DNA from: Nibricoccus sp.
GTDB taxonomy: Bacteria > Verrucomicrobiota > Verrucomicrobiia > Opitutales > Opitutaceae
DNA: 64,000 bases
Assembly: GCA_047602425.1 (NCBI GenBank)
Contig: JASGHG010000001.1
Location: forward strand, 4,352,001 to 4,416,000
Direction: 5' to 3'
A program made the translations under genes and the position numbers. The notes beneath the pieces are model-generated. The model had not been told where the DNA came from, did no database searches, and was given only the letters and a program-made list of their open reading frames with translations. Positions 39,783 to 61,757 of the stretch are shown in pieces. Positions within the stretch are counted from its first letter, which is position 1; every line of letters starts with the position of its first letter.

Positions 39783-39786
39783 TCGA

Positions 39787-40869
39787 TCAGCGTTGGATGC
39801 GGGCGGAGCCGCCTTTGGCGAAGGCTTTCACCTGTTCGACCGTCGCCATGGTGGTGTCGCCGGGGAAGGTGGTGAGCAGCGCGCCATGCGACCAGCCGAG
39901 GTTGACGGATTCCTGTTCGGAAGCGCCGCTGAGCAAGCCGTAGAAGAAGCCGGTCGCGTAACCGTCGCCGCCGCCGACGCGATCGACGACGTCGAGTTCG
40001 CACATCGGGGATTGGTAGGTCTTGCCGTTGACCCAAGCGACCGCGCCCCAAGTGTGGCGGTTGGTCGAGTGAACTTCGCGCAACGTCGTCGCGACGGCTT
40101 TCACGTTCGGGAATTTCTTGGTGGCCTTTTCGATGACGGCGTAGAACGCGGTCGGATCGAGCTTCGACTTCGACTCGACGTCCTGGCCTTCGATGCCGAG
40201 GCCCTTCTGAAGGTCTTCTTCGTTGCCGACGAGAACGTCGACGTGCTGCACAATGCGGCCGAGCACATCGAGCGCCTTGGACTGGCCGCCCCAGATGTCC
40301 CAGAGCTTTTGACGGTAGTTGAGGTCGAAGGAGGTGATTGCACCGGCCTTCTTGGCGGCCTGCATGGCTTCGACGATCAGTTCGCCGGTCGTTTCCGACA
40401 GCGCCGCGAAGATGCCGCCGCTATGGAACCAACGCACGCCCTGTCCAAAAATTTGTGCCCAATCGAAGTCGCCCTTCTTGAGCTGACCGGCGGCTTCGTT
40501 GGAACGGTTATAAAACACCACCGGAGCGCGCACGCCCTGGCCGCGATCGGAGTAAACGGTCGCCATATTCGGGCCGCGCACGCCGTCGTGTTTGAACTTC
40601 TTGTAGAAAGGTTTCACGCCCATCGCGCGCACGCGTTCCGCGATCAAATCGCCGATCGGGTAATCGACCATGGCGCTCGCGACCGCGGTATTCAGGCGGA
40701 AGCAATCCGAGAGATTGGCCGAAACGTTGAACTCGCCGCCACTGACATGAATGTCGCAATGGTTTGCCTTGCGAAAGGGGATGATACCGGGATCGAGGCG
40801 ATGAACCAGCGCGCCGAGCGAGAGAAAATCGATGGCGCCATCTTGGCGGATATTCAGGGAGTTACTCAT
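39787..40869 (-). CDS. PfkB sugar kinase, KDG-kinase-like (paralogue of 32825-33919)
   Basis: SGGEFN, DLNYR, GNEED, DRVGGGDG. Confidence 0.9.
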   Translation of the reverse strand: MSNSLNIRQDGAIDFLSLGALVHRLDPGIIPFRKANHCDIHVSGGEFNVSANLSDCFRLNTAVASAMVDYPIGDLIAERVRAMGVKPFYKKFKHDGVRGPNMATVYSDRGQGVRAPVVFYNRSNEAAGQLKKGDFDWAQIFGQGVRWFHSGGIFAALSETTGELIVEAMQAAKKAGAITSFDLNYRQKLWDIWGGQSKALDVLGRIVQHVDVLVGNEEDLQKGLGIEGQDVESKSKLDPTAFYAVIEKATKKFPNVKAVATTLREVHSTNRHTWGAVAWVNGKTYQSPMCELDVVDRVGGGDGYATGFFYGLLSGASEQESVNLGWSHGALLTTFPGDTTMATVEQVKAFAKGGSARIQR

Positions 40870-42687: not shown

Positions 42688-42850
42688 TTTTTACCACGGA
42701 TTGCGCGGATACCTCGGTTAAAACCATCTGACTTGGGGCAACGCGCCGTCGTTGCCGTATCCCGTATACGCTTAGCCGTGATCGCGGGTAGGGATGGACC
42801 GCCGGGCCGTCCGCTTCGACCCTGAACCGTTTTAAACCGCTTATGCACAC
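42682..42850. repeat. REP/nonamer mosaic, copy A
   Basis: Shares modules with 44162-44372; contains GTAGGGATGGACCGCCGGGCCGTCCG at 42788. Confidence 0.75.
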
Positions 42851-43553: not shown

Positions 43554-44066
43554 TCAAGAAACACCAGACGCATCGGGGTGCAACTCCCTCAGTACCCGTA
43601 TATCTTCCTGATCCTTGGGACGGCCAGCATCCTTTTTCATCGCGAGCAAGAGGTCCAACGGCACGACAGGCACCACTACACCGGTAAACAACTCTGCCTT
43701 GGCCGCTTTTTCGTAGGCTGGTTCGAAAGCGAATGGTTCGGTTACAAAAAGATCGACAGGAATATCAAGAGGGTCACCGGTGCGCATTTGAAAAACGAGC
43801 ATGCCCTTCTCTTCGATCCAGCGTTTCCGTATACCGGCTTCTGCATAGTCAGCGGCGTTTACCGGAACTGCCGGTTTATAGCCGAGTGCGACCAACGACT
43901 GAATGGCATTGAGCGCATTCTCGCGCTCCAACGCGACGACAAGATCAATGTCATTGGTTGCCCGGCTATGTCCGTGCGCGGCCACAGCCAAACCGCCCAC
44001 CAGCAGATAACGAACGTCGTGTTGGTTGAGGCTAGCAAAAACACTTTTGACCGTATCGAGAAACAT
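43554..44066 (-). CDS. nucleotidyltransferase, AbiEii/MenT-like
   Basis: LVGGLAV..HG..RATNDID, VDLF, LLAMK...RPKDQED. Confidence 0.85.
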   Translation of the reverse strand: MFLDTVKSVFASLNQHDVRYLLVGGLAVAAHGHSRATNDIDLVVALERENALNAIQSLVALGYKPAVPVNAADYAEAGIRKRWIEEKGMLVFQMRTGDPLDIPVDLFVTEPFAFEPAYEKAAKAELFTGVVVPVVPLDLLLAMKKDAGRPKDQEDIRVLRELHPDASGVS

Positions 44067-44161: not shown

Positions 44162-44372
44162 AAAATAGTTTTAACCATGGATTGCACGGATTTCACGGAC
44201 GAAACCATCTGGCATGGAGGGCGACGCGCTGTCGTCGCCGGTTCGACCCAAAACCGTCTTTAACCGCAAATTAAATAATCGACGCAAATTCCGAAGGTGG
44301 CACGCGACGTCCTCGGCGCGTGGGTTTGAGCGGCTCGCGGTCCGCGGGTAGGGTGGCTTCGGAGCAACCGCT
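44162..44372. repeat. REP/nonamer mosaic, copy B
   Basis: AAATAGTTTTAACCATGGATTGCACGGAT...AAACCATCTG...GGCGACGCGCTGTCGTCGCCG. Confidence 0.75.
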
Positions 44373-46024: not shown

Positions 46025-47005
46025 TCACCGGTATTGTTGCGTCAGGCGTCGGACGGCGGCCTTGATGCTTTTGCGGAGCTCGGCGGGGGCGAGGACTTCG
46101 GCGTCGGAGCCCCAGCTCAGTATCCAACTTTCAACTTCAGGGAGCGCGCCGAGTTTCATGCTGAGTTCGACGCCGCCGTTGGGCAATTCGAGGAGGGCTT
46201 GCGAATCGTGCCAGACACGCTCACGCACGCGGTCGGCGACTTTGGCGGTGAAACGCACGCGCACCTGGTAGTTGCCGCTGCCGCCGAGCACGCCGAGGGC
46301 ATTGGAGAAAAAGTTTTCGGGCGAAAAATCCTGGGGACGGGAGAACGTCGTCTTCGTGGTGCGAACGTCCGCGATGCGGGGCAGGGCGAAGGTGCGCAGG
46401 GCCTTGCGTTCGACGTCGTGGCCGACCAGGTACCAGAGATTTTGGCGGTGAGATAAATGGTAAGGTTGAACCGAGCGGCGCGACGCGCGGGCATCGCCGG
46501 GCTTGCGATAGTCGAAGGTGACTTCCAGTTGCTTGAGCACGGCGGTGCTGAGGGTGTTGAAGACGACGAGATCGGCTTTGCCGAGGCCCATGTTTTTGAA
46601 CGATACGGCGCTGAGTTCCTCGGCGGGCGAAAAGGAAATGCGATCCTTGAGTCCTTCAGTGAGTTTATCGAAGGCGATTTCAAGCTGCCGGTGAAAGGGT
46701 GTGCCTTGATATTGCTCGACAGCGCGTCGCGCGACGAGCAACGCCATGAGTTCGCCCTCGGTGACTTCCACGGTGGGAAACGAACTCACCGGGTGCGTGT
46801 AGCGGTAGGCGTTGAGCTGCGCGTCGAATTCGATCGGGAGGTCGAGCTGGTCGCGCATATAGGCGATGTCGCGAACAACGGTTTTGCGCGAAACTTCGAG
46901 GTCGTGCATGAGCTGCGTGCAGTTGGTCATGGCTCCGCGCCGCAGGTCCTCGTGGATGCGCAGCATGCGTTCTAGAGGGGGCCGGGAGCGTCCGCGTGTG
47001 ATCAT
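46025..47005 (-). CDS. HTH-WYL-WCX transcriptional regulator
   Basis: LEVSRKTVVRDI, VQPYHL...WYLVG...RTFALPRI, WILSWG..AEVLAP. Confidence 0.94.
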   Translation of the reverse strand: MITRGRSRPPLERMLRIHEDLRRGAMTNCTQLMHDLEVSRKTVVRDIAYMRDQLDLPIEFDAQLNAYRYTHPVSSFPTVEVTEGELMALLVARRAVEQYQGTPFHRQLEIAFDKLTEGLKDRISFSPAEELSAVSFKNMGLGKADLVVFNTLSTAVLKQLEVTFDYRKPGDARASRRSVQPYHLSHRQNLWYLVGHDVERKALRTFALPRIADVRTTKTTFSRPQDFSPENFFSNALGVLGGSGNYQVRVRFTAKVADRVRERVWHDSQALLELPNGGVELSMKLGALPEVESWILSWGSDAEVLAPAELRKSIKAAVRRLTQQYR

Positions 47006-47026
47006 AAAATAATTTCAGTTTTTTTT

Positions 47027-47053
47027 AGGGTGGGACAGCTAGTGACCCACCCT
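47027..47053. promoter_or_regulatory. palindromic operator in the WYL divergent promoter
   Basis: AGGGTGGGACA-GCTAG-TGACCCACCCT followed by a -10-like TATTGT. Confidence 0.7.
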
Positions 47054-47071
47054 GGGTGGTATTGTCAACGC

Positions 47072-47698
47072 ATGAACATGAATACCACCTCCAAAAAACT
47101 GCTCACCCGCTCGATCGAAATCATCTGGTCTCACTATGGCGAACGCTACCGCGTCGACAGCGATATGAAATTTTACCGCGAAAGCGACGAGGGCTGGGTC
47201 AACTGGCAGCCCGATCCCTCGACGGCGATCTTCTCCTCGGCGGCCGACGGCATCTCGGAAACGCGCTGGTCGGCTTTCCTCGAATTCGTTCCGACGGCGG
47301 AGCGGCGGCTGCTCGAAATGTTCGACGTGGGCCGCGCCGGCGTGCTGGCGGTGGTGGCGCTTTGCCCGGGGCTGGTGGCGGATTTGCTGGCGACGCCGGC
47401 ACTTGCGCCCTTCGTGGCCGAACATGCGCGGTTGCGCGGGACCGAAACGCGTTGGGAAGAAATCGCGGCAGTGCACAGTCGCGGTGGCGTTTACGCGCTG
47501 CTCGAATGGCTCGGTCTGCCGGCCTCGCGTCAGACGTTGACGATCTTGCAGAAGATTGCCGAACCCGATCTCGCGCGCCGTTTGCTCGAACCGATCCGCG
47601 CGTCGCTGTGGGAGCCGGAGACAATTTGGTTCCTCCAGCACACGCCTACGCTGACCGAACGCGCGCTCACGCACCACTGCGATTGCGTGGCGGCGTGA
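47072..47698 (+). CDS. hypothetical protein divergent from the WYL regulator
   Basis: 208-aa ORF with natural composition. Confidence 0.75.
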   Translation: MNMNTTSKKLLTRSIEIIWSHYGERYRVDSDMKFYRESDEGWVNWQPDPSTAIFSSAADGISETRWSAFLEFVPTAERRLLEMFDVGRAGVLAVVALCPGLVADLLATPALAPFVAEHARLRGTETRWEEIAAVHSRGGVYALLEWLGLPASRQTLTILQKIAEPDLARRLLEPIRASLWEPETIWFLQHTPTLTERALTHHCDCVAA

Positions 47699-47707
47699 GC
47701 GATTTCC

Positions 47708-49399
47708 TCAACGTGCAGCGAGGAATGCCCGCCAGCCGCCGAACGAGGTGACGTCGCGAGCGTTTGCCACGGCGGCGGCTTCGCAGAGGAAACTCTGCAC
47801 GGTCGAGCCGTCGTCGAGCGTGACGGTGCCGATGCCAAGCGGACTCGGAATGTTGGAAACGAAATGGCCGTAACCCGCGACGGGGACGTTCCAGACTTCG
47901 ACTTCAATGGGCGCGCCGCCTTCGACGACCCGGATCAGTCCGGGTTTGGGCGGCGTGGTGCCGGGCAGGGCGAAGAGTTTGTAGGTGGGAGCCGTTTTGG
48001 TCGCGCGGTCGAGGGTCGCGCCGAGCTGGGTGAGTTGCCAGTTGAGCGGGAGTCCGCTGAGGTGCGCGCCGCAGACGGCAAGTTTAATCGTGCGGCCGGC
48101 AGATGGCAGGGAGCGTTGCGGCGCGGTTTCGCCGAGAAATTTTGCGCCGAGGCGGAGCACGCGATCATCGCAAAATGCGGGAGCGACGAGCGTAACGCCC
48201 CAAGGCATTTTGTTTGGCAAAAAGCCCACGGGAACGGCGACGGCACAGAGATCGAATAGGTTCAGGTAATTAGTATAGGTGCCGAGGTTCGAATTGAGAC
48301 GGATGGGATCGGACTCGACTTCGGCGACGGTGTAGACCGTGCCCGTGGTGGGCGTGAGCAATACGTCGATGTCGGCCCAAACGGCCTCGGCTTGGCGGCG
48401 GAGCGCAGCGAGTTTGTAGGCGGCCTCGAAGGCGGACGTGGCAGTGAGGGCGCGCGCGCTTTCGATGATCTGGCGCGTGACGGGATGCAGCGCGGCGGGT
48501 TGGCTCTCGATGAAAGGGCGGATGGCCGCATAACGCTCGGCGACCCACGGTCCCTCGTAGAGCAAGCGGGCCGCGGCGAGAAACGGCGTGAAGTCGATTT
48601 CGACGATTTTGGCGCCGAGCGAACGCCAGCGCGCGATGGCGGTGGCAAAAAGTTCGGCGGCGGCGGCGTTGCCGAAAAATTCGAGTTGGTCGGCGCGCGG
48701 CACGCCGATGCGAGGCGGCCAGACTTCATCGATCACCGGCGGAGTGGCGGGGCGGCTGTATGGATCTTCCGGATCGTAGGCGGCAGCGACGGAGAGAATT
48801 TCGGCGGCGTCGGAAATTGTGCGTGTGAAGATGGAAACGCAGTCGAGTGTGCGGCAGGCTGGAACCACGCCGCGGGTGCTGAGGAGGCCGCGCGTGGGTT
48901 TGAGGCCAACGAGGTTGTTGAAGGCGGCGGGAACGCGACCGGAACCGGCCGTGTCGGTGCCGAGGGCAAAATCGCATAAACCAGCCGCCACCGCCACGGC
49001 GGAGCCGGAGCTGGAGCCGCCGGGGATGTAAGCTGAGTTGAACGGATTTACGGGCACGCCATACGGTGAGCGCACGCCGACGAGGCCGGTGGCAAATTGG
49101 TCGAGATTGGTTTTGCCGAGGGGAATCGCTCCGGCATTGACGAGCCGTTGCACGACAGGAGCGGAAGTGGAGGGCGTGTACGCGAAATCGGGGCAGGCGG
49201 CGGTGGTGGGCACGCCAGCGAAGTCGATATTGTCCTTGATCGCAAACGTCAGACCGCGCAGTGGAGCGGGACCGAAAAGTTTGGCCGCGGCATCGGCGAG
49301 TCCGAGCACGTGCTCGCGGCACAGGCGCGAAATCCAGACGGGGTCCTTTCCGCGGGCGTCGAGGCGGGCGAGAGTTTCGGCGATGGGTGAAGGGGCCAT
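47708..49399 (-). CDS. atzF: allophanate hydrolase
   Basis: KDNID, GKTNLDQFATGLVG, GGSSSGS, GTDTAGSGRVP; C-domain VCGAHLSGLPLN. Confidence 0.95.
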   Translation of the reverse strand: MAPSPIAETLARLDARGKDPVWISRLCREHVLGLADAAAKLFGPAPLRGLTFAIKDNIDFAGVPTTAACPDFAYTPSTSAPVVQRLVNAGAIPLGKTNLDQFATGLVGVRSPYGVPVNPFNSAYIPGGSSSGSAVAVAAGLCDFALGTDTAGSGRVPAAFNNLVGLKPTRGLLSTRGVVPACRTLDCVSIFTRTISDAAEILSVAAAYDPEDPYSRPATPPVIDEVWPPRIGVPRADQLEFFGNAAAAELFATAIARWRSLGAKIVEIDFTPFLAAARLLYEGPWVAERYAAIRPFIESQPAALHPVTRQIIESARALTATSAFEAAYKLAALRRQAEAVWADIDVLLTPTTGTVYTVAEVESDPIRLNSNLGTYTNYLNLFDLCAVAVPVGFLPNKMPWGVTLVAPAFCDDRVLRLGAKFLGETAPQRSLPSAGRTIKLAVCGAHLSGLPLNWQLTQLGATLDRATKTAPTYKLFALPGTTPPKPGLIRVVEGGAPIEVEVWNVPVAGYGHFVSNIPSPLGIGTVTLDDGSTVQSFLCEAAAVANARDVTSFGGWRAFLAAR

Positions 49400-49414
49400 G
49401 CGGGAGGAAGATTA

Positions 49415-49495
49415 GTAATTTGTAGTTGGTAGTTTGTAGTTGGTTTTTGACGAAGGGCAGCTTTGACGAACTACTAATTTCAAACTGCCAATTAC
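49415..49495. repeat. heptamer palindromic element, empty intergenic copy (81 nt)
   Basis: GTAATTT GTAGTTG GTAGTTT GTAGTTG - 25 nt - GAACTAC TAATTTC AAACTGC CAATTAC. Confidence 0.9.
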
Positions 49496-52400
49496 ACTGC
49501 CGTTGCGGCGGCGATTGGCTTGATGACGACGAGTGGATCGCCGGCTTGCACGGGTTTGCCTTCGGCGCAGAGGACCTGTGTGACCTCGCCTGCGCCGGTG
49601 GCGAAGACGGAAATTTCCATTTTCATGGATTCGAGGATGACGAGAGCTTGATCGCGCGTGATGCGGTCGCCGGGCTGGACGTTGATCTTCCAAACGTTGC
49701 CGGGAACCTGTGCGACGATGGCGGTATGGCCTGGCGGGAGCGCGGCATGTTCGGCGGGGCCGGTGGAGGCTTCGCTCTCGGCGGAAAAGTTGAGCTGGCC
49801 GGACGCTTCCCAGCGTTTGCGCTCGGCTTCGAACGATTGCTGCTGGTTCGTCTTGAAGGCGGTGATGGAGGCGGCGTTATCGCGAAGGAATTTCCGATAG
49901 TCGCGCAGGCGAAATGTCTCGTGGTCAATCTTGAGCTTGTAACGGCCGAGCGGGAAATCCTGGCGGAATTTCAACAACTCCTGGGCACTGACCTCGTGGA
50001 ACTTAATCTGGTCAAAGAAGCGCAGCAACCACGGCTTACCGCCAGTGAAGTCAGAGGTTTGCCGCCAGCGGTTCCACATCTGCACGGTGCGGCCGATGAA
50101 CTGATAGCCGCCGGGACCTTCCATGCCATAAACGCACAGGTATGCGCCGCCAATGCCGACGGCGTTCTCGGGCGTCCACGTGCGAGCGGGATTGTATTTC
50201 GTGGTAACGAGGCGGTGACGCGGATCGACAGGCGTGGCGACGGGTGCGCCCAGATAAACGTCGCCAAGGCCGAGAACGAGATAGTTTGCGTCGAAGGCGA
50301 TGCGCTTCACGTCGTCGATGGAGTCGAGGCCGTTGATGCGGCGGATAAATTCGATATTGCTCGGGCACCACGGCGCGTCCTTGCGGACGGTCTGCATGTA
50401 TTTTCGGATGGCGAGGAGTGTGGACTCGTCTTCCCACGAGAGCGGCAAGTGGACGATGCGCGTGGGAACTTCCATATCGTCGAGAGCAGGAAGGTGAACC
50501 TCGGCGTCGATCAATGTCTCCATCAGACGTTCGAGCGGAAGCACGCGGCTGTCGAAGTGAACCTGAAGCGAACGGATGCCGGGAGTGAGATCGAGGATGC
50601 CGGGCGTGTGGCTGTCGACAAGCCAGTCCATCAAGGCGTGAACGCGGAAGCGAAGTTCGAGGTCGAGGACGGCGGGGCCGTATTCGATCAGCAAATACTT
50701 ATCGCCGGCGCGCCGGTAGACGACGGCGGGCAAATCGTCGCGAGGCGGAATGGTGTGGAGGATGGAGGAGGCAGTGGTTGGTAGTTGGTAGTTGGTGGTT
50801 GGTGCGGACGCAGGCGTGGCTTTGGAAGTTTTACCAATTCCCAAATCCCAACGACCAATTGCCCCGGCTCGTTGCCGGCCGGGAATCAAGGTCTCGATCT
50901 GCGCTTCGTGGACCGCTTCGAGTTCGCGGGCCTTGGCGGCGGTGACGGGCCGGAACCGGACTTTGTCGCCAGGCTTAAGCTGGCCGACTTTCCAGAGATC
51001 GGCGGTGATGATCGTCGCGGGGCATACGAAACCGCCGCAGCTCGGGCCGTCGGGACCGAGGATGATCGGCATGTCGCCGGTGAAATCGATCGCGCCGATT
51101 GCGTAGGCGTTATCGTGGATGTTGGACGGATGCAGGCCGGCTTCGCCACCGTCGGTGCGCGCCCAGCGCGGTTTTGGGCCAATCAGGCGGACGCCGGTGC
51201 GGGCGGAGTTGAAGTGAACCTCGTAGGTCGCGGAGAAAAGATCGGCGATGTCTTCGTCTTTGAAAAAATCGGGCGCACCATGCGGACCGTAGAGGACGGC
51301 GATGTCCCATTCGCGGGTATATGTTGGAACGAGGGCGGCCGGGAGTTTGCGGAGCGCGGAGGAGGTAGTTGGTAGTTGGGAGTTGGAAATTGGTGCGGAC
51401 GCAGGCGTAGGCGAAGGGTTTTCACCAATTACTAAAAACGAATTACCAACTACGGTTTGAGCGAAGTGAAGCACGTCGCCAGCGCGCAACGCACGTCCAG
51501 CGTGGCCGCCGAAGAGGCCGAGCGTGAAGGTGGCCTTGCTGCCGAGGTAATCGGGGACATCGAAACCATGCTGAATCGCCAAATAGGCGCGCATGCCGGC
51601 CTCGGTGACTGCACCGACGCGGAGGGTTTGGCCGCGTTTCACGCGGAAGGCGCGCCAGAAAGTCACGGGCTTGTCGTCGAGTGTCGCGGACGTGGCCGCG
51701 CCGGTCAGGGCGACGATGGCAGAAGTGTTGAAGCGGAGCGTGGGACCGCTGAGGGTAATTTCGAGCCCGGCGGCGGAAGCGGGATTGTCGACAAGACGAT
51801 TGGCTAGCCGGAACGCGAGGGCATCCATCGGTCCGGAGGGAGGAACGCCGACATCCCAATGCCCGAGGCGGCCGGGATAGTCCTGCACGGTGGTTTGGGT
51901 TCCGCCGTCGAGAACCTCAATGGTTGGTGCGGAGTAGGGAAGTTTTTCGAGATACCGCGTGGTGACTTTACCGGCGCGGAACCCTTCGGAGGCGAGAATC
52001 TGGCGCAAGTAGAGCAGGTTGGTTTCGAGGCCGGCGACGCGCGTTTCGGCGAGCGCCTGAGCGAGGCGGTTGAGCGCTTCGTCGCGTGTCGAACCGCGCG
52101 AAATCAGTTTCGCGATCATCGGATCGTAGTACGGGCTGACTTCGGAGCCACGCTCGACCCAGGTTTCAGTACGCAAGCTGTGCGGAACGACAAACTCGGT
52201 GAGCACGCCGGTGGCGGGTTGGAAATTTTTGCCAGGATCCTCAGAGTAGAGACGGACTTGGATCGAGGCGCCAAAAGAGCGGCGCTGAAAATTCGTGAGG
52301 TCAAGTTCGCCAGCGGCCTGCTTGACCATCCACTCGACAAGATCGATGCCGGTGACTTCCTCGGTCACGCCGTGCTCGACCTGGAGGCGGGTGTTAACTT

Positions 52401-53262
52401 CGAGAAAATAGAATTTGTTTGTCGCGTCGTCGAAGACGAATTCGACGGTGCCGGCGGACTCGTAGCCGGCGGCGTGGCCGAGTTTCTCGGCGCAAGCAAG
52501 TAGTTCGGCACGGACGTTTTCGGGCAGGCCGGGTGCGGGCGTTTCCTCGATGATCTTTTGGTTGCGACGCTGGATGGAGCATTCGCGCTCGCCGAGGGCG
52601 ACGACGTGGCCGCGTCCATCGCCAAAAATCTGCACTTCGATGTGACGGGCTCGCTCGACGTATTTTTCGAGGAAGAGACCGCTCTCTTTGAAATTGGCGC
52701 GACTGAGGCGATCGACGCGGGCGAACGCGGGTTCGAGCTCAGCGGCGTTCCAACAGAGTTGCATGCCGATGCCACCGCCGCCGGCCGTGCTCTTGAGCAT
52801 GACCGGATAACCGATGCGCTCGGCTTCGCGCAGCGCGGTGGCGACATCGGGCAAAAGTCCAGTGCCGGGAAGAAGCGGAGCGTTTTCTTTTTGCGCGATT
52901 TCGCGGGCGGTGTGCTTCAGGCCGAAGCGACGCATCTGATCGGGTTTCGGGCCGATGAACACGATGCCAGCGGCAGCGCAGGCTTCGGCGAAGCCTGGAT
53001 TTTCCGAGAGAAAACCATAACCAGGATGTATCGCCTGGGCGCCCGTCTGCTTGGCCACCTCAAGGATTTTTTCGATGACGAGATAGCTTTGGGCGGCTGG
53101 CGCAGGACCGATCAGAACAGATTCATCGGCCTCTGCAACGTGGAGCGAGCCGACATCGGCTTCGGAGTACACGGCAACGGACTTGATGCCCATTTTGCGC
53201 AGGGTGCGCTCGATGCGGCAGGCGATGGCACCACGGTTGGCGATGAGGACTTTGGTGAACAC
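49492..53262 (-). CDS. uca: urea/guanidine carboxylase
   Basis: ANRGAIA, HPGYGFLSEN, EVNTRLQVEH, HPSNIHDNAY, KYNPARTWTPEN, biotin motif ESMKME; two low-complexity inserts. Confidence 0.96.
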   Translation of the reverse strand: MFTKVLIANRGAIACRIERTLRKMGIKSVAVYSEADVGSLHVAEADESVLIGPAPAAQSYLVIEKILEVAKQTGAQAIHPGYGFLSENPGFAEACAAAGIVFIGPKPDQMRRFGLKHTAREIAQKENAPLLPGTGLLPDVATALREAERIGYPVMLKSTAGGGGIGMQLCWNAAELEPAFARVDRLSRANFKESGLFLEKYVERARHIEVQIFGDGRGHVVALGERECSIQRRNQKIIEETPAPGLPENVRAELLACAEKLGHAAGYESAGTVEFVFDDATNKFYFLEVNTRLQVEHGVTEEVTGIDLVEWMVKQAAGELDLTNFQRRSFGASIQVRLYSEDPGKNFQPATGVLTEFVVPHSLRTETWVERGSEVSPYYDPMIAKLISRGSTRDEALNRLAQALAETRVAGLETNLLYLRQILASEGFRAGKVTTRYLEKLPYSAPTIEVLDGGTQTTVQDYPGRLGHWDVGVPPSGPMDALAFRLANRLVDNPASAAGLEITLSGPTLRFNTSAIVALTGAATSATLDDKPVTFWRAFRVKRGQTLRVGAVTEAGMRAYLAIQHGFDVPDYLGSKATFTLGLFGGHAGRALRAGDVLHFAQTVVGNSFLVIGENPSPTPASAPISNSQLPTTSSALRKLPAALVPTYTREWDIAVLYGPHGAPDFFKDEDIADLFSATYEVHFNSARTGVRLIGPKPRWARTDGGEAGLHPSNIHDNAYAIGAIDFTGDMPIILGPDGPSCGGFVCPATIITADLWKVGQLKPGDKVRFRPVTAAKARELEAVHEAQIETLIPGRQRAGAIGRWDLGIGKTSKATPASAPTTNYQLPTTASSILHTIPPRDDLPAVVYRRAGDKYLLIEYGPAVLDLELRFRVHALMDWLVDSHTPGILDLTPGIRSLQVHFDSRVLPLERLMETLIDAEVHLPALDDMEVPTRIVHLPLSWEDESTLLAIRKYMQTVRKDAPWCPSNIEFIRRINGLDSIDDVKRIAFDANYLVLGLGDVYLGAPVATPVDPRHRLVTTKYNPARTWTPENAVGIGGAYLCVYGMEGPGGYQFIGRTVQMWNRWRQTSDFTGGKPWLLRFFDQIKFHEVSAQELLKFRQDFPLGRYKLKIDHETFRLRDYRKFLRDNAASITAFKTNQQQSFEAERKRWEASGQLNFSAESEASTGPAEHAALPPGHTAIVAQVPGNVWKINVQPGDRITRDQALVILESMKMEISVFATGAGEVTQVLCAEGKPVQAGDPLVVIKPIAAATAV
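50774..50862. repeat. heptamer palindromic element, in frame within uca (89 nt)
   Basis: GTGGTTG GTAGTTG GTAGTTG GTGGTTG - 33 nt - CAATTCC CAAATCC CAACGAC CAATTGC. Confidence 0.9.
51365..51453. repeat. heptamer palindromic element, in frame within uca (89 nt)
   Basis: GTAGTTG GTAGTTG GGAGTTG GAAATTG - 33 nt - CAATTAC TAAAAAC GAATTAC CAACTAC. Confidence 0.9.
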
Positions 53263-53268
53263 GGGAAA

Positions 53269-53798
53269 GTAGTTGGTAGTTTGTAGTTGGTAATTGGTAC
53301 GGGGATGCTCAATCTTTTGTTGCTCTCGTGCATTGGTGCAGGCTTCCTATAAATCCACTATGGCGACTTTTGTATTGGATGAACTGAGGGTTTACCGCAT
53401 GGCGGAGGAATTGGCGGACGCGACGTGGGATTTGATTGGTGATTGGGCTCCGTTTGCTAAGGAAACCGTTGGCAAGCAGCTGGTGCGCGCGGCCGATAGC
53501 GTCGGTGCAAACATCGCCGAGGGTTACGGACGAGCGTCGCCGGCCGACAATCAACGTTTCGTGAGAATGGCACGCGGATCTCTTTACGAAGTTAGGCATT
53601 TTCTGCGCCGAGCGGATAAGCGAGGGCTGGTGGATAAGACGTCGAAGCAGGCATTGCAGAAAGTTCTCAGTGAATTGCTCCCGGGATTGAATGCATACCT
53701 TCGTTCCCTGCGAAATGGCGGGGATGGTGACAAATAGGAATTTTACGGAGGTGCACACAGGTGTTTCGACCAACTACCAAATACAAACTACTAACTCC
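53269..53798 (+). mobile_element. candidate gene-carrying heptamer palindromic element
   Basis: 4 heptamers (53269-53296) and 4 inverted heptamers (53771-53798) enclosing one ORF; mobility is inferred, not shown. Confidence 0.6.
53360..53737 (+). CDS. four-helix-bundle protein (23S rRNA IVP family)
   Basis: LRVY, QLVRAADSVGANIAEGYGR, ARGSLYEV. Confidence 0.93.
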   Translation: MATFVLDELRVYRMAEELADATWDLIGDWAPFAKETVGKQLVRAADSVGANIAEGYGRASPADNQRFVRMARGSLYEVRHFLRRADKRGLVDKTSKQALQKVLSELLPGLNAYLRSLRNGGDGDK

Positions 53799-54491
53799 TC
53801 AATCCGACGCATGGGAGGGCTTGGCATTCCAAACCAAAACTTCGATTGGCGTCGGGTTGTAGGCGTTGCAGGGGTTGTTGAGTTGGGGGCAATTTGAGAT
53901 GAGGCAGATGACGTCGCGTTCGGCGCGGAGCTCGACGTAACGGCCCGGCCCTGAAACGCCGTCTTCGAACGTGAGGCGACCGTCGGGCGTGACGGGGACG
54001 TTCATGAAGAAGTTGATGTTGCAGGTGATGTCGCGTTTGCCCCAGTCATGTTTTTCGAGATGGAAACTGTGGCATGAGCAGGAAATTTCCTGGGCGCCGC
54101 GAATAAAACTGTCGCGGCAGGCGTGCATGTGCTCCTTTTCAAGGGCGTAGCGCATGGTGTTGCTTTCGCGCGAGCAGGCGCCGCCGAGCGTGTCGTGGCG
54201 ACCGCAGGTGTCGGCAACGATAGTGAGGAGCGCGTCGCCTTCGGTGGAAACGAGGCGCGTTCCGGTTGTGAGGTAGAGAGCACCTTGGTGACGAATCGTA
54301 TCGGAGGCGCTGTAGCGGTTGGCTGGTTCGTGTGCGTCGTAGAAAAGTGTGTCGGCCGCCTGATTTCCCTCGAGATCGACGATGCGGAGGGTTTGGCCCT
54401 TTTTAACGACGTAGGAAAAATAGTCGCCGGCGAGCACGACCTTACGGAATGCCGCGGTGGATGGGTCGAGTTTGCTTTCGGTGAGGGTCAT
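53799..54491 (-). CDS. urea amidolyase-associated protein 2 (DUF1989, CgdB-like)
   Basis: [43 protein letters not shown]. Confidence 0.92.
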
Positions 54492-54558
54492 GGGAGGCGG
54501 TGTCTCGCGAAGATACGAAGGGGGCGAAGGAGGAGTTGATAATCAATCCGAAGAAAGG

Positions 54559-55281
54559 TTAGGAGCTTAGCGCGTAGTAGTTCTCGGTGTTGAGGAAAGC
54601 TCGGGCGTTTTCCGGGCGGGAGTTGCGGCACGGGTCGTCCGCGGTGGGCGGTGGTGTGGCGAAGATTTCTACCTTCACGTTGCGCGGGTGGTAGACGGGA
54701 TCTGGATCGAGCGGGTGCTGACAGGTGTTGAGCACGACGAGCGTGTTCATCTCGAAACGGAGATCGACGGAGCCGCCGGCTTTCGAGTGGTCCGAGACGA
54801 AGGAGAGTTTGCCGGAGTCGTCGGCGACAACTTTGGAAAATAGATTAAGGTTCGGCACGAGATCGCGTTTGCCGAGACCATGCTTGGCGAGTTCGATGAG
54901 GAAGCAGTCACGGCCGTTGCGGAAAAATTCGTTTCGAGAGGTCTGGTAGTTTTTGTCGCCGTATTTTTGGGCGACGAGGTTGGCGTCGGAGCAGCCGCAA
55001 ACGGTGTCGTGCCAGCCGGCGGAATCGGCGACGATCGATGCGAGGACACGTCCCATGTCGGAATGCAGACAATACGGTGCGCGGACATGGAAGATATGCT
55101 GGCCCTTGAGCGTATCAGGCATGTTGTACCGTTCGGTTGGTTGGTCGGCGTTGTAGAGAAGCAGGCCAACGTTCGCACCGCCTTCGAGATCGGTGAGACG
55201 CAGAGTCTTGCCGCGAGAAATCACGCCCGACCACATGCCGGCGTGGTGGAGTTGCTTGGTGAGGAGTGGGGCGGAGATCAT
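54559..55281 (-). CDS. urea amidolyase-associated protein 1 (DUF1989, CgdA-like)
   Basis: [30 protein letters not shown]. Confidence 0.92.
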
Positions 55282-55286
55282 TGGCG

Positions 55287-55314
55287 GTATTACGAAATTA
55301 ATGAAAAGTGTTAC
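55287..55314. promoter_or_regulatory. NikR-like operator 1
   Basis: Minus strand GTAACAC-N14-GTAATAC. Confidence 0.7.
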
Positions 55315-55330
55315 TGCAAGGATCGTGCCG
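55315..55330 (-). promoter_or_regulatory. sigma54 promoter
   Basis: CGGCACGATCCTTGCA (GG-N10-GC). Confidence 0.85.
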
Positions 55331-55377
55331 ATTCCTCAGGACGGGTGAAAATTGCCACTGCTTTGTGCTCGGATTGT

Positions 55378-55878
55378 CTACCGAAGGGGTGGAATGGCGG
55401 CGGCGGTGAGATTGAGCCGGCCATTTTTCACGCCTTTGCACGTGACGAGCTCGTCGGTCAGTTTGCGCAGTTCGTTTGCCGGCCCCTGAACGAGGAGAAC
55501 TTCGAGGTAGTTGTGATGTTCCAAGTGTACGTGCATACTGGATACAATCAGCAAGTAGTAGCGGTGTTGGATTTCCGCGAGGCGCGCCTGGAGATCTTTT
55601 TTTCGATAGTCGTAAACGAGGCTGACCGTGCCGGCGACAGAACCGGTGCCGATTTCGCTGGCAAACTCGACCAAACCGTCGCGAGCGAGCGCAGCCACAG
55701 CTTGCGAGCGACTCTGAAAGCCACGACTTGCCACCATGGCGTCGAGCTCGTCGAGCAGGCTTTCAGGAAGCGAAATGCTGAAGCGGGCGACTTTGTCGGA
55801 GCGGGCAGCTGCGACCGGCGAATCCGTTGAAGGATTCGCCGCTGTGGGCAGAGTTGAGTTTCTAGAAGAGGCGGGCAT
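55378..55878 (-). CDS. NikR-like ribbon-helix-helix regulator
   Basis: [11 protein letters not shown]...[13 protein letters not shown]...QH...HVH..LEV. Confidence 0.88.
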
Positions 55879-57223
55879 AACGATCGACTTCCCACTGGCT
55901 GACAGTGAGGTGGTAGGCGCGCCATTCCTCGGATTTGTAGGTGATAAACTCGTCGCGCAATTCCTGGCCGAGCGTTTTGGCGATAAACGGATCGGCGGCG
56001 AAAAGCTCCACGGCTTCCTCCAAGTCGCGTGGCAGATAGGAAATGTTTCGTTTGGCTAGTTCGGTTTCAGGAAGTTCATAGAGGTTCTCCTCCTGGGGTG
56101 AGCCCGGATCGAGTTTTTCGCGGACGCCTTCCAGGCCGGCGGCGAGCAGCAGCGTCGCGGCGAGGTAGGGGTTGCAGGCGGAGTCGGCATTGCGGCTTTC
56201 GCAGCGGCCTCCGCCCATAGGCACGCGAATGGAGTTGGTGCGATTGTTGGTGCCGAAGCTGTTGAAGACTGGCGCCCATGAATAGTAACTCATCGCACCG
56301 CGGCGAACGAGGCGTTTGTAACTGTTGACCGTCGGAGCGAGCGCCGCACAGATCGAGCGACCGTGGCGAATGACGCCGGCGATGAATGAGTAGGCGAGCG
56401 GCGTGAGTCCTAGGCCGCGCGGGTCTTCCTTTGGATCGCACTTGAATGCGTTTTTTCCCGAGGCGAGCTCGTAGAGCGACATGTTGAAATGGGCGCCGTT
56501 ACCGGTTTTGTCGGCGAAGGGCTTGGGCATGAACGTGGCGAGCAGGCCCTCCTCGGAAGCAAACTGCTTCGCCATCATGCGGAAAAAGACGTAGCGGTCG
56601 CACATGGTTAGGGCGTCGGCATATTTGAAATCGAACTCGAACTGCGAAGGCGCATCCTCGTGGTCGAGCGAATAAAGGTCCCAGCCGAGGTTGTTGATCG
56701 CGGTCGAAACCTTGTCGAGCCAGGTGTAGCGATCCATGAAGCGCTTGATGTCGTAGCAGCTCTTCACGAGGTTGTCGTCGGAGTTGGGAATCGAGAGCTT
56801 GCCATCGTCACCGTGCTTCACGACGAAGACCTCACACTCGATGCCGAGGTTGAAACCGAGTCCGAGCTTGGCGGCGTCGGCGAGGACGTTTTTCAGCGCG
56901 ACCCGTGTGTTGATAGGATATGGTTCGTCGTGGAAGGTGTTATCGGCGGGAAACCAGGCGACTTCGGATTTCCACGGCAAAATGATACCACGATCGAGAT
57001 CGGGGAGGGAGGCGATTTCGTCGTCGTTTGGGCGCTGGCCCAAGCCATCGAGCGCGTAGCCGGTGTAAAGCTCGGACCCGTGCGCAAAGTGGAGGAAATG
57101 ATCGATGGGCACGAATTTGCCCTTCGGAATGCCGTGAATATCAGTGTAGGCGCCGACGCAATATTTGACGCCCTTGGCTTTGAGTTCGGCCTGAAGTTTA
57201 AGAATGTCGGAATCGGATTTCAT
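55862..57223 (-). CDS. glutamine-synthetase-like (GlnT/type III-like) ligase
   Basis: [22 protein letters not shown]...GNGAH, NSYKRL, NNRT, ESR, NPYL. Confidence 0.85.
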
Positions 57224-57285
57224 TTATGAAAAGATAAAGGGTTGTTGGCGATGGGTGATGGGTCCTGTTACTGGCTATTCTCTTT

Positions 57286-58101
57286 TCATAAATGCGAAGG
57301 CGACTGGCCGCTGGCGGACGGAAAATAAGGCACGTCGAGTGGAGAACGTTCGCGCATGCCGCGGCGGACGAGCTTGGCGAGATCGGTGACGAGCCAACGA
57401 AGAAGGCGCTGGCCTTTGGCCTGGGTTGCGCGGCTGGGAAAGCCCGTAACGCCATTGGCACTGGTGCGGTTGACTGGGTGGGCAAAAACGAGACCGCCGG
57501 TGCGGTCAGGATCGTCGGATTTTTTCAGAAGGCGGGGACGGAGGATTTCCGGCGCAGCCGCGAGCATGAGGGCGGTTTCGGCGGCGTTGGCGTGCCAATC
57601 TGCAGCGTCGGAAAAAAACTCACGTCTAACGCGCGGGCTGGCCTCCGCGGCATTGATCACCGCGATCATGAAGCCGTCGTGGCGGCTCCGCAGAATTTCG
57701 AGCGCGCAGCGAAGCGGTGCGTGGTTCGTGACGTGAGTGTTGAGTAAAAAAAGGCGGCGGAAACCCGCGGCAAAGAGCCAGTCGCCGATGTCAGTCACAA
57801 GTGAAATCAGCGTCTGTGGCTGCAGCGCCAGCGTGCCGGGCCAGCGATGCGAATGTCCCAGAGAGCAGCCGTAGTGCAGCGTCGGCAGGACAGGAACGCG
57901 GGTCGTGGCAGAAACGGCTTCGCCCAGAATGGTCGCCAGGGAAGCATCCATGCCGGTGCCGAGGTGCGGACCATGCTGCTCGGTGGCGCCGCAGGGCAGG
58001 ATCACGCCGTCGACGCCGCTGGCGTGCAATGCAGCGATCTCGGGCCAGGTTAGTTTGTCCCAGGCGAGCGGTTTTGGCGAAGACTGTTTTTTGCGCGGCA
58101 T
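57286..58101 (-). CDS. creatininase-family amidohydrolase
   Basis: GATEQHGPHLGTGMD, NTH..N, DWHANAAET, GVTG. Confidence 0.9.
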   Translation of the reverse strand: MPRKKQSSPKPLAWDKLTWPEIAALHASGVDGVILPCGATEQHGPHLGTGMDASLATILGEAVSATTRVPVLPTLHYGCSLGHSHRWPGTLALQPQTLISLVTDIGDWLFAAGFRRLFLLNTHVTNHAPLRCALEILRSRHDGFMIAVINAAEASPRVRREFFSDAADWHANAAETALMLAAAPEILRPRLLKKSDDPDRTGGLVFAHPVNRTSANGVTGFPSRATQAKGQRLLRWLVTDLAKLVRRGMRERSPLDVPYFPSASGQSPSHL

Positions 58102-58103
58102 AG

Positions 58104-59021
58104 TTATTCAACGTCGTCGCCGACCTGGGTCAGACGCACGATGGGAAGTCTTTCGATTTCGGCGCTGTGGACGTCCGTTTTGGGGTGGATCAATTCGTCC
58201 AACCGCCTCCGGGTGGCGAGGAACTCCGGCGAATTCACCTGCGCCAGATTGCGAGGCCGGGGCACGGGCACTTCGATGATTTCCTGAACTTCGCCGGGAT
58301 TGGCCTTGAGCACGAGAATGCGATCGGCGAGGAGCACGGCTTCATCGAGATCGTGCGTGATGAAGAGGATGGTGACGTCGACATTGCGCCAGATTTCGAG
58401 CAAGTGCGTCTGCATCTGCGCGCGCGTCTGGGCATCGAGCGCGCCGAACGGTTCGTCCATCAGGAGGATTCGTGGATTGGCGGCCAGCGCACGCGCGATG
58501 GCGGTGCGCTGCTTCATGCCGCCGGAGAGCTGGGCTGGGTAGGCATTTTCGAACCTTGAAAGACCGACAAGCTCGATCCACTGACGCGCTTCGCTGGAGG
58601 CCTGCGTGCGTTCCATGCCCTGCATCTGCAAGCCGAACATCACATTTTCCGCAACCGTGCGCCAGGGGAAAAGCGTGTAGCCCTGGAAGACCATGCCGCG
58701 ATCGGGGCCGGGGCCGTGGACCTCCTTGCCGTCGAGCAGCATGCGACCGGAAGTCGGATAATCGAGGCCGGCGACCATGCGGATGAGCGTGGACTTGCCG
58801 CAGCCGGAGGGGCCGATCACGCAGAGAAATTCGCGGCGGTGGACTTTGAACGACACATCGCGCAAGGCGGTGACCGGGCCATTTTCGCCCTCGAACGACC
58901 GGCCGAGTTGCTGCACATCGAGGACGACGGGGCGTTCCTTGAGCTTGCGAAAACGTTCCGCGACGGCAGACGATTGCGTGCGATAGTCGGGAAGGCTGGA
59001 AATTTCGGTCGCGGAAGTCAC
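58104..59021 (-). CDS. NitT/TauT-type ABC ATPase
   Basis: [30 protein letters not shown]. Confidence 0.95.
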
Positions 59022-60070
59022 TTGGTAAGAATGGGCTTGTAAGGTGGAATTTTAATCAGCGGCGTGGCGTAACGATCGGTGACGAGACGGACGAAATACG
59101 TGCGCAGACGGCTGGGGCGCGGATTTTTCCACGCGAAAACGCGAACTCCGATAAAGGCGAGTACCTGATCGGTGAGCAGGCCGATGACGCCAATGATCAC
59201 GATGGCGGCATAAACGTTGTCGAAGTTGCGGTACTTGGCCTGCTGATTGATGAAGAAAGTGATTCCCGAACTAACGCCTACCACCTCCGCAACGATCAGG
59301 TAGGTCCAAGCCCACCCCAGCAGAATGCGCAGGTCGTTATAGAGATCAGGGAGGCTGGCGGGGACAATGACGCGCCAGACGAGTTGCCGGCGTCTCGCTC
59401 CGAGTGTCTGCGCAGCCTCGATCAGGCTGATCTCGGTTTTTCGCACCGTATTTGAAACTACGAGGACCTGCTGGAAGAAAGTTCCGATGACAATGATGGC
59501 GACCTTGGGTTCGAGATGGATGCCGAAGATGGCGACCATGAGCGCTCCGAAGGCCGGAGCTGGCATATACCGGATGAAATCGACAAAAGGCTCGGTGAGA
59601 CGGGCGATCGCAGGATGCGCACCGCAAAAAATCCCAAGCGGCACACCGATCAGCGAAGAGATGACGAAGCCCCAGAAGATGGTCTTGATGCTCATCCAAA
59701 GACTCTCATGCAACCAAAGGTCGCCACGCAGAACCGGCTTGGTGGTGAACGCGGTGTAAAGCGCCCGGGCGACGGCGTGCGGAGCGGGAAGAAAAATCGG
59801 ATTTGCGCGCGTGCCCGTGGGAAGGTTTCCGCCCTCGGACTGCAAGCGCGTTGCTTCCTTGGTGAAATCGGCTCGAGGAATAAGCAAGCCCGGGCGAAAC
59901 CAGGAGACATCGCCAGGCGAATCCACTTTCACCATCGGGTGCCAGATGAACGGCACATAGCTCACGATGCACCAGAGCGCCAGGGGTAGCAAAAACGCCA
60001 GCACGCCGAGCACCATGCGGCGGCGGGGTGTGAGGTCTTTGCGGACCGAAAGCCAGCTCTGTTTAGGCAT
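59018..60070 (-). CDS. NitT/TauT-type ABC permease
   Basis: [28 protein letters not shown]. Confidence 0.93.
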
Positions 60071-60163
60071 GACGTGGAATTTTGGATACAACCCAGCCCT
60101 GCGCCGGGCCATTGGCTGCCCGGCGGGGCGAAGAAGACGGAGGGGTTTACGAAGGGCGGGTGA

Positions 60164-61162
60164 TTACTTTTTCTTTAGAACTTCAGCAGTGAGCGACGCG
60201 TCGATGTACGAAGGAACGTTCTGCGCTTCTTTGTAGACGCCATTGGTTACGTTGAATTCGTCGGCGATTTTCGAAGAGCCGATGAGCGAGTCGAAACCCT
60301 TGGTCTGAGCCGAGAGGACTTTACCGCCTTCGGCGAGGGTGAGGAACTGGGTGCCGGGCATGAAGGAAGCGTACTCCTTGGGATCCACACCGGCGCGGGC
60401 AGCCATGATCTTGATGCCGTCTTCACGGGTCTTCGGATCTTTCAAATAAGCCACAACCTTGTCCCAGACGGAAACGAACTTGACCCAATCGGCACGGCGC
60501 TGGGCGAGACTCTGCGGGGTGACGACGACGGCGTCGTAGATCAACCCGGGTTCATTGGCGCTGGTGTAAATGGCCTTGGAGCCGGGGACGGCCTTGAGAG
60601 CGGCCCCGGAATTGGGCTGCCAGGCGCCAATGGCGTCGACCTGTCCGGACGCGAGCACCTGCGGCGTCTGATTTGTGGGGGTGGGAACCAGTTCGAGATC
60701 TTTTTCGGTGAGGCCCACTTTCTTCAGGCCGTTGAGCAGGAGAAGATGTTCAACGAAGCCGATCTCGATGCCGATTTTTTTGCCCTTGAGGTCTTTCAAC
60801 GAGGCGATGCCGGGCTTGGCGACGATCATGTCGTTACCATTGGAAAAATCGGTCATGAGGATCATGACGTTTTTCGCGCCGTTGGCGCCCGTAACGAGGG
60901 CGTCGCCGTTGGTTACGGTAACGGCGTCGCATTTACCGGCGGTGAAAGCTTCCATCGACGGGCCGTACTCGAACCAGAGCAGTTCGACTTCGACGCCGGC
61001 TTCTTTGAACCAACCCTTTTGTGCGGCGATTTCGAGAGCGGTCCAGCCGGGCCAGTCCGAGAAGGCGACTTTGAGTGGTGCGGCGGAAGCGAGGCTGGTG
61101 ATGAGAACGAAGAGCGTGGCGAAAACAGACAGACGGCGGCGGAGGGAGGAGGTGGTGATCAT
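60164..61162 (-). CDS. ABC substrate-binding protein (NitT/TauT type)
   Basis: [25 protein letters not shown]; signal peptide. Confidence 0.93.
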
Positions 61163-61170
61163 TGGAGGCA

Positions 61171-61198
61171 GTGTTACTTTTTGAGCAAAACGTGTTAC
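61171..61198. promoter_or_regulatory. NikR-like operator 2
   Basis: Minus strand GTAACAC-N14-GTAACAC. Confidence 0.7.
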
Positions 61199-61209
61199 GC
61201 CTGTCTCTC

Positions 61210-61225
61210 AGCACGGGCTATGCCA
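61210..61225 (-). promoter_or_regulatory. sigma54 promoter
   Basis: TGGCATAGCCCGTGCT (GG-N10-GC). Confidence 0.7.
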
Positions 61226-61327
61226 CGAATGGCCGCATGAATATTTCCACGCTTAGTGTAGAGGACGCGGCTCTCAGGTGTGGTGCTTGCCTCCGAGAAG
61301 ACCGGGAGGGTAGCTTGCGGTGATTGT

Positions 61328-61741
61328 ATGAAAACCATCGATGAATTTTTTCGGAGCGACCAGTTTGTGAATCACTGCGGTATTGAACTGATATCGCATG
61401 CGCCAGGACAGGCGGTGGCTCGAATGGTGGTAAGGCCGACTCATCTGAATGCGTTGGGCATCGTGCAAGGCGGAGCGATTTTCACGCTGGCGGATTACGC
61501 CTTTGGTGTGGCCTCGAACGGCCATGGCTCGGCTGCGGTTGGCATTAGTGTGAGTATAACCTACGTCAAAGCGACAACCCACGGCACGCTCACGGCGGAG
61601 GCGCGCGAAGTATCGCTAAACCCGAAGCTGGGCAGCTATACCGTCAATGTGACGGATGAGAATGGCACCATGGTCGCGATCTTCCAAGGGCTCGCATATC
61701 GGAAGAAACAGCCGATCGCCGACGAAGTGAAGCACGGCTGA
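61328..61741 (+). CDS. PaaI-family hotdog thioesterase
   Basis: HLNALGIVQGGAIFTLADYAFGVASN. Confidence 0.9.
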   Translation: MKTIDEFFRSDQFVNHCGIELISHAPGQAVARMVVRPTHLNALGIVQGGAIFTLADYAFGVASNGHGSAAVGISVSITYVKATTHGTLTAEAREVSLNPKLGSYTVNVTDENGTMVAIFQGLAYRKKQPIADEVKHG

Positions 61742-61757
61742 CAACGCACCCGGATAG

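Follow-up and report, generated by a model that had tools for sequence, protein, structure and literature searches.

Within the 64,000-nucleotide stretch of the Nibricoccus sp. genome analysed here (contig JASGHG010000001.1, positions 4,352,001 to 4,416,000; hereafter the window), a urea carboxylase operon holds four elements, E1 to E4, that are built from inverted arrays of a seven-base unit, and in E4 the arrays enclose a gene for a four-helix-bundle protein. We consider it fairly probable that E4 is a member of a widespread selfish cassette, in which a four-helix-bundle gene lies between two inverted arrays, or arms, of about four short units, and that E1-E3 are copies of these arms without the gene. 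Below, compared loci are numbered L and compared genomes G, with G000 being the source genome.

A four-helix-bundle gene packaged between inverted arms

Inverted arms scoring at least 20/28 flank 62 of the 68 metagenome and viral loci with usable flanks (81 fetched), against 0/68 after shuffling. Arms likewise flank 66 of 75 scorable genome loci (79 in all), and 26 of the 30 paralogue loci that were fetched out of 44 matches in family genomes. Across the genome, metagenome and paralogue loci the repeat units sort with the protein clades, the outcome of a check on heptamer type and protein clade that an earlier note, made from the letters of the window alone, had proposed. Reading by eye in the source genome, we found arms at four of five paralogues, each with a unit of its own, and 9-10-mer arms at all five GxxExxY genes. 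Moreover, two gene-less heptamer families of this genome match the units of paralogue clades found in G084. Variants of the arrangement were also seen: a paralogue at G000:C1:3849026-3849472 has reversed arm polarity, with the C/A-rich arm first, as do its relatives L286, L292 and L296; at G000:C1:840190-840780 a heptamer pair surrounds not a gene but three tandem copies of an approximately 120-nt GC-rich unit; and in the cassettes L175 and L177 a small gene-less hairpin is nested in the gene leader, followed by an extended -10-like motif.

The host operon runs on the minus strand and comprises UAAP1, UAAP2, urea carboxylase (uca) and allophanate hydrolase. All four elements of shared design that the earlier note had placed here were recovered. 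E4 (53269..53798) occupies the UAAP2-uca junction, where it abuts the UAAP2 stop codon (53799-53801) and ends 6 nt before the start codon of uca. A repeat scan locates four GNARTTN units at 53269..53296 on the plus strand, 5' of the helix-bundle gene, and four inverted units at 53771..53798 on the minus strand, with 24 of 28 positions complementary between the arms. The remaining elements are gene-less and have two arms each. E3 (51365..51453; arms 51365-51392 and 51426-51453) supplies residues 604-633 of Uca in frame, and E2 (50774..50862; arms 50774-50801 and 50835-50862) supplies, also in frame, residues 801-830, in an inter-domain linker of the enzyme. E1 (49415..49495) lies at the uca-allophanate hydrolase junction and consists of arms at 49415-49449, with five plus-strand units of which the last is degenerate, and at 49468-49495; it provides the uca stop codon, located within its first unit on the operon strand. 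The carboxylase frame (49492..53262, minus strand; TIGR02712) is open through E2 and E3. Thus the coordinates of the earlier note hold, but it had missed that these two elements are coding sequence inside the enzyme rather than intergenic.

The arms exceed what chance would give: in the 5.16-Mb genome 13 peaks reach at least 21/28 to four consensus units, eight of them being the arms of E1-E4, and the same scan on two block-shuffled genomes gave no peak. Seven is at the same time the commonest short tandem period of the genome, with 68 regions against 1-39 for periods 5-11. As the earlier note had reported, there is no transposase in the E4 cassette and no target-site duplication, no direct repeat at the ends of any element exceeding 1 nt.

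The enclosed gene (53360..53737, plus strand) is antisense to the operon and encodes a protein of 125 residues with a pI of 9.3. Its assignment to the four-helix-bundle family, already made in the earlier note, is secure, with 82.9 bits for TIGR02436 (cut-off 24) and 86.3 bits for PF05635 (cut-off 33.8). A structure model based on a 24-row alignment has a pLDDT of 91.6, and matches Xcc0516 (2gsc) with a Z of 19.7 and an rmsd of 1.0 over 113 aligned residues (sequence E 6.5e-8), BT0352 with a Z of 14.7, and Avd, the accessory protein of diversity-generating retroelements (DGRs), with Z values of 14.3 and 13.8 (rmsd 2.2 over 114 residues, 8% identity). The best unrelated bundle reaches a Z of 12.6, hence the modelled fold is Avd-like by a modest margin. 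By analogy with Avd and with Xcc0516, for which 2gsc contains five chains (PMC4990558), the protein is probably a pentameric ring. The gene is under purifying selection, with dN of 0.18-0.30 and dS of 1.55-2.67 or saturated among 14 full-length relatives at the same site. Its closest named relatives are from Opitutaceae, and a search of viral contigs returned only one relative. The antisense gene may well possess its own expression signals: a candidate -10-like box at 53348..53353 (plus strand), 6 nt before the ATG, would suit a leaderless promoter, although a consensus promoter scan did not call it. The TA at -13/-12 is present in 12 of 24 antisense genes and in 0 of 26 others, kin in these sets not being independent, and a Shine-Dalgarno-like motif in 5 of 24 antisense genes.

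To follow the junction, 72 uca loci were compared, namely the best-matching ones among the 110 of 401 family genomes with a match, plus one from another family, a set that leaves out a roughly 60%-identical clade and most fragments. Among 70 readable UAAP2-uca junctions, 19 hold the antisense gene, five a sense GxxExxY cassette and 46 neither, the latter being occupied by gene-less hairpins of other families or plain. Of the 19 loci with the antisense gene, 11 have the upstream stop codon beginning at arm position -3 or +1, and in 17 the distance between the end of the arm and the uca start is 2-13 nt. Four more loci (L038, L051, L174 and L186) carry the gene at the same junction with a related unit in sense orientation; therefore the cargo was flipped or inserted twice. 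Comparison of these loci indicates that the cassette has long been resident at this junction in Verrucomicrobia, in both orientations. Two separate inversions, lateral homing of the whole cassette and two separate Tyr/Phe changes at position 56 of the protein are hinted at by the best trees but not established by approximately unbiased (AU) tests (p 0.33; 0.052-0.42). The GxxExxY cassettes at this junction (L008, L127, L136, L138 and L147) are unrelated, with a nuclease fold, nonamer arms and sense orientation, and a relic heptamer arm inside that of L136 suggests that one cassette replaced the other.

Gene-less arms in carboxylase loops and across genomes

The presence of arms in the carboxylase is coupled to the presence of the gene. 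Arms of the E4 unit occupy the E2 or E3 loop at 13 of 18 gene-bearing loci, two of five GxxExxY-bearing loci and one of 43 others; of the two GxxExxY loci, one has a different unit that scored at threshold and the other a relic arm at E4. Independent pairs, on a tree of 64 loci built without the linkers, run 6.6 the same way against 0.1 the opposite way (median p 0.016). All 137 E2/E3 segments are in frame. Alignment with relatives, which the earlier note had proposed for finding empty sites, yielded them: where empty, the E3 loop has a conserved sequence and a fixed length, and 42 of 69 loci retain this ancestral length. As filled loops are nested among empty ones, with nine changes on the tree, and the ancestral residues are lost, E3 was gained several times by replacement; nine of ten filled loops carry the gene. 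In the window, the 89 bp of E3 amount to a net gain of 69 nt, and the conserved loop residues are gone.

Descent from a gene-bearing cassette is recorded next to the arms. A stretch of 16 nt on the arm side is common to E2, E3 and the gene leader of the L116 cassette, and looser in L112. In E2 (50799..50818, minus strand) the 16-nt core of this leader remnant is identical to the L116 leader, and the counterpart in E3 lies at 51390..51409 on the same strand. Because this leader piece is shared with the L116 cassette, E2 and E3 are derivatives of a gene-bearing one, congruent with the gene-less derivatives of a protein-plus-repeat system that had been proposed at the outset, and with arrays tracking the gene. 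Unit variants furthermore shift together within one operon: L110, L111 and L161 have A as the second unit base at E4 and gene-less sites alike, L122 has a different unit at both E4 and E2, and the GxxExxY nonamer arms likewise appear at E1 and E2 of GxxExxY carriers. Growth of the left arm from the host loop by perfection of a palindrome was considered and dropped, since the bases within that arm are found again in other lineages, at E2 and E4. The same sites are also used by hairpins starting with GTAG (E3 of L111; E2 of L140, L141 and L162; E1 of L118 and L131), which we tentatively label as similar to repetitive extragenic palindromic (REP) sequences; in L141 the hairpin sits inside a decayed heptamer element.

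Beyond the operon, three-unit matches were found in 10 of 11 family genomes with the cognate gene and in 7 of 110 without, kin not being independent; the array and gene counts are taken as the same draw of 121 genomes, an assumption based on identical genus tallies. In several carriers the arrays lie genome-wide. Neither of two suggestions of the earlier note, that gene-less copies spread locally or that they tag the operon, is supported by this distribution: the arrays are genome-wide in relatives, as are other heptamer families in the source genome itself, although for this unit four of five source-genome loci are indeed local. A solo in-frame arm of the unit is present at G000:C1:1047756-1047790 (L258), in a loop of an approximately 980-residue gene that we take to be glycine dehydrogenase-like, and 0.9 kb further on the same gene has an arm of a second family. 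Palindromes scattered regardless of the gene, which the earlier note had named as evidence that would count against it, were found in part, in G155, G147 and G007; elsewhere arrays track the gene.

The sampled arrays of G155 and G007 (33 arrays at 32 loci, part of 56 overlapping matches) are solo arms without exception, 30 of them with four units. With gene strand taken from a simple coding model, all 33 have at least one flanking gene for which the C/A-rich strand is sense, and 25 lie outside open reading frames (ORFs). The solo arms keep leader remnants (score 8.8 versus 6.1, p 2e-5), and five of the 33 are identical to the cassette arm of the sister genome G084. That solo arms are always the 3' arm was tried as a rule for all families and proved inconsistent, holding for this unit only. 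In a gene we presume to be UvrA-like, one protein loop that contains a 28-nt arm is only 6-9 nt longer than in four orthologues and 6 nt shorter than in a fifth. Collectively, comparison among relatives indicates that arms were gained repeatedly at tolerant sites, such as after stop codons and in in-frame protein loops, replacing host bases without target duplication, and that these gains took place mostly in genomes with the cognate gene.

The uniform polarity of the solo arms and their frequent location outside ORFs, together with the arms at stop and start junctions, would also be expected of a domesticated regulator, where the protein binds arms in mRNA to tune translation coupling or decay and the repeats represent its regulon. 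A translational role has been proposed for the heptamers of Beggiatoaceae (PMC4679880), and Avd binds RNA (bioRxiv 10.1101/2023.10.23.563531). Such a function is however difficult to align with the fast gain, loss and swapping with unrelated repeat families that takes place at the same sites in close relatives. All four elements, E1 included, are absent from the sister genome G004, copies are found inside coding loops, and arrays are kept where the protein is absent. We therefore judge a regulatory role to be unlikely.

Proposed read-out and copying of the arms

In E4 and the in-frame copies, both arms preserve G1 (100%), A3 (85-97%) and T5/T6 (93-100%), with little constraint at positions 2, 4 and 7. 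Selection for an RNA hairpin was rejected as the cause, with no excess of G.U pairs on either strand (12 versus 16, 24 versus 31 and 26 versus 38; 20 versus 20, 27 versus 33 and 4 versus 7), the operon strand and its complement being equal at E4, with 20 each. The earlier note had pointed to co-variation of the arms, quoting GTAGTTT opposite AAACTAC; this pair is present, but as a general signature of a hairpin the co-variation is not supported, with 44 of 256 deviations shared over 41 arm pairs. The resulting 17% is marginal relative to the 13.9+-1.7% and 15.2+-1.5% of two null models. E1-E3 fold better on the antisense than on the operon strand, for which avoidance of stop codons may be responsible in E2 and E3. 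Overall, the arm pattern points to read-out of the sequence at both ends rather than to a stem selected for its structure, and would fit DNA or RNA alike.

These observations bear on the idea that the repeats are passive, arising through host slippage and ectopic gene conversion from the cassette as the nearest donor, with the protein irrelevant to them and the hairpin hiding the insert from the transcript in the way RNase III removes intervening sequences (IVSs). Orphan arrays without the gene are in agreement with this, overwriting and leader remnants fit ordinary conversion, and the placement of stop and start codons at the arm ends (in 11 and 17 of 19 loci, as above) is equally well accommodated. 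In Coxiella, RNase III cleaves the stem of the IVS, and the ORF inside it is decaying (PMC4990558). The fixation of G1, T5 and T6 despite saturated synonymous sites, the missing G.U preference and the weak co-variation are nevertheless unlike a stem maintained for structure alone. In addition, the operon strand is the one on which E1-E3 fold less well, and conservation of the gene extends to copies in antisense orientation. A purely passive origin is doubtful in our view.

We instead favor, as a reasonably likely interpretation, a selfish system of protein and cognate repeat, the arms of which are copied by overwriting tolerant sites. The unit follows the clade and arrays track the gene across genomes, in support of the pairing of protein and repeat that the earlier note had put forward. 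The ring protein would read the fixed bases of G-N-A-R-T-T-N, at about one unit per subunit and alike at both ends, and the bound arm would then serve as donor in conversion-like copying by host repair or replication enzymes, with arms persisting as orphans after gene loss. Avd, which has the same fold, binds an RNA stem-loop through all five protomers, with flipped-out bases between protomers (bioRxiv 10.1101/2023.10.23.563531). Host enzymes are proposed for the copying because no transposase or reverse transcriptase (RT) is linked and the protein, to our knowledge, has no catalytic role. Concerning the residues that may contact the unit, all carriers with A at unit position 2 have Phe in place of Tyr56. 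Taken as a recognition code of one residue, position 56 is consistent within this clade only, and the code was rejected as a general rule.

The gene could alternatively be mere cargo of non-autonomous elements that are moved in trans, by an unlinked transposase of the HUH/RAYT type (RAYT, REP-associated tyrosine transposase) or by a group II intron RT. The source genome does contain four Y1_Tnp matches and one group II intron-type RT, and the hairpins labelled REP-like share sites with the arms. None of these enzymes is however near the operon, all four Y1_Tnp matches being at least 40 kb away and the only RT found in the genome, with a group II maturase domain, approximately 3.5 Mb away; gains moreover track the helix-bundle gene. 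Host bases are replaced instead of pushed apart, with neither fixed ends nor target duplication. Mobilization of this type is hence quite unlikely. The locus G000:C1:922947-926680 (L254) has a group II intron-type RT beside an IS110-family transposase.

Several observations weigh against a selfish protein that copies its own arms. Matching of clade and unit is by itself no proof of recognition, because arms and gene are inherited together. The change from Tyr56 to Phe and that of the second unit base are compatible with a single event (AU p 0.42 and 0.36), and Phe56 also occurs with other units (L239 and L246). Vertical descent of the gene at the site, with repeated loss, is not rejected by AU tests (p 0.31 and 0.39; DNA 0.052), and four of the 19 gene copies at the site are broken, although assembly errors may contribute. 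The loops lack arms at five of the 18 gene-bearing loci, and the same loops also hold unrelated hairpins, meaning that these sites are generally permissive. Finally, G155, G147 and G007 have 46, 29 and 10 matches, respectively, with arms that look well kept and no cognate gene found; the closed genome of G007 gave no PF05635 match at all, and G098 has the gene but no array at threshold.

A more specific mechanism can be envisaged, where an Avd-like pentamer captures a single-stranded arm, as RNA or as DNA exposed by transcription, and templates a retrohoming-like overwriting of the chromosome through a host polymerase or a borrowed RT. Four-unit solo arms (30/33), a single strand polarity (33/33), one-sided and variable leader remnants, and replacement without duplication would all fit such a route. 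We nonetheless regard this as a rather speculative proposal. Its extension, a spread free of transposase and nuclease that is ancestrally tied to DGRs and from which the heptamer repeats of bacteria and the ORF-bearing IVSs of rRNA would both derive, is in our estimate just as tentative.

Surroundings, known repeat systems and implications

The operon is completed by UAAP2 (TIGR03424; 53799..54491, minus strand) upstream of E4 and allophanate hydrolase (47708..49399, minus strand) downstream of E1, both assigned by profile matches; guanidine is the substrate of most such carboxylases (PMC12186494). An Rfam scan of window positions 47000-64000 gave no family match to the cassette, and no riboswitch above threshold around the carboxylase/ABC transporter operon. 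The same interval includes a NikR-like regulator and a type III glutamine synthetase-like gene, and at 46025-47698 a WYL/WCX regulator is divergent from a 222-residue ORF without Pfam or NCBIfam match. Other repeats are present nearby. A solo nonamer arm occupies the UAAP1-UAAP2 junction of the same operon (54500-54533) and belongs to a family that brackets GxxExxY genes in relatives. At 39560-39790 there is a gene-less two-arm element of another heptamer family; this family has 53 loci in the genome, and its cognate paralogue lies at G000:624198. Nonamer arms that resemble each other and point the same way are located at 42690-42730 and 44170-44200; the region between them includes a small gene (43554-44066) that is nucleotidyltransferase-like, by a weak match to AbiEii, and a short ORF downstream of it.

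Among the closest known systems are the 23S rRNA IVSs of Coxiella burnetii and Leptospira, where the same protein family, as S23p, is encoded in the loop of terminal inverted repeats; that of Coxiella has tandem heptamers before the S23p ORF, and the sizes are alike, at about 430-530 nt (PMC4990558). E4 shares the inverted repeats around an S23p-type ORF but is located between UAAP2 and uca, in a protein-coding operon instead of an rRNA gene. It is also antisense, its ORF is conserved and not decaying, copies lacking the gene are present elsewhere, and nothing points to selection on the stem. The GGGAATC repeats of Xanthomonas and GGGGAYT repeats of Nostoc have mostly four units and position-specific conservation, with about 70 inverted pairs in Xanthomonas; the G-rich arm directly follows stop codons or, ahead of ORFs, is on the antisense strand, and few copies are in ORFs (PMC4692102). 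The arms described here equally have about four units, inverted pairs and a G-rich arm after a stop. The published repeats were explained as G-quadruplex sequences (PMC4692102), whereas the present unit has no run of three Gs. In the P6b stems of the Nostoc tRNA-Leu intron, one class of heptamer has been repeatedly swapped for another at one site (PMC4476775), and the TAACTGA repeats of Beggiatoaceae form solo arrays oriented just before start codons (PMC4679880). The notion of a mobile protein that binds such repeats has been raised in this literature, and none is identified in the available parts (PMC4476775, PMC4679880); terms for the helix-bundle protein gave no match in those of the Xanthomonas (PMC4692102) and Beggiatoaceae (PMC4679880) papers.

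Membership of established classes of mobile elements is not supported. Insertion sequences and miniature inverted-repeat transposable elements do not apply, as there is no cassette transposase and no target duplication, and host bases are replaced. In REP/REPIN-RAYT systems, one gene is flanked by its own repeat type and many gene-less palindromes are present in the genome, the RAYT being an HUH nuclease. The cargo here is instead PF05635, with no known catalytic fold, the arms are tandem arrays, and the copies replace host sequence and are also present within ORFs. Overwriting of a target region is shared with DGRs. The helix-bundle gene is, however, without a linked RT, a template/variable repeat pair or adenine-specific variation, the variable unit positions not being adenines of either strand. 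Avd of DGRs has the same fold and forms a pentamer that reads repeated nucleic-acid features (bioRxiv 10.1101/2023.10.23.563531).

Aggregated, the cassette works like an IVS-type cassette with REP-like derivatives, the parts of which have been published separately. The earlier note's candidate for a new element family is not supported as a wholly new one: four-unit heptamer palindromes after stop codons (PMC4692102) and heptamers before an S23p ORF (PMC4990558) are already in print. For the link between protein and repeats outside rRNA, no literature was found in a search that did not extend to subscription journals or supplements; PMC8700078, in its available part, only lists such genes.

Structures of PF05635 proteins have been available since 2006, and we know of no function assigned to the family. 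The arrangement described here offers a testable one for this large unexplained family, and may also concern the excess of heptamer repeats in bacteria, which is left unexplained in the cited literature as available. It predicts that the 125-residue protein should bind arrays of G-N-A-R-T-T-N and not the units of the four paralogues in the same genome. The gene-less copies meanwhile write new loops of 20-30 residues into an enzyme. If correct, the proposal would establish selfish spread without a transposase, a source of variation in protein loops, and a likely origin of the ORF-bearing IVSs of rRNA.

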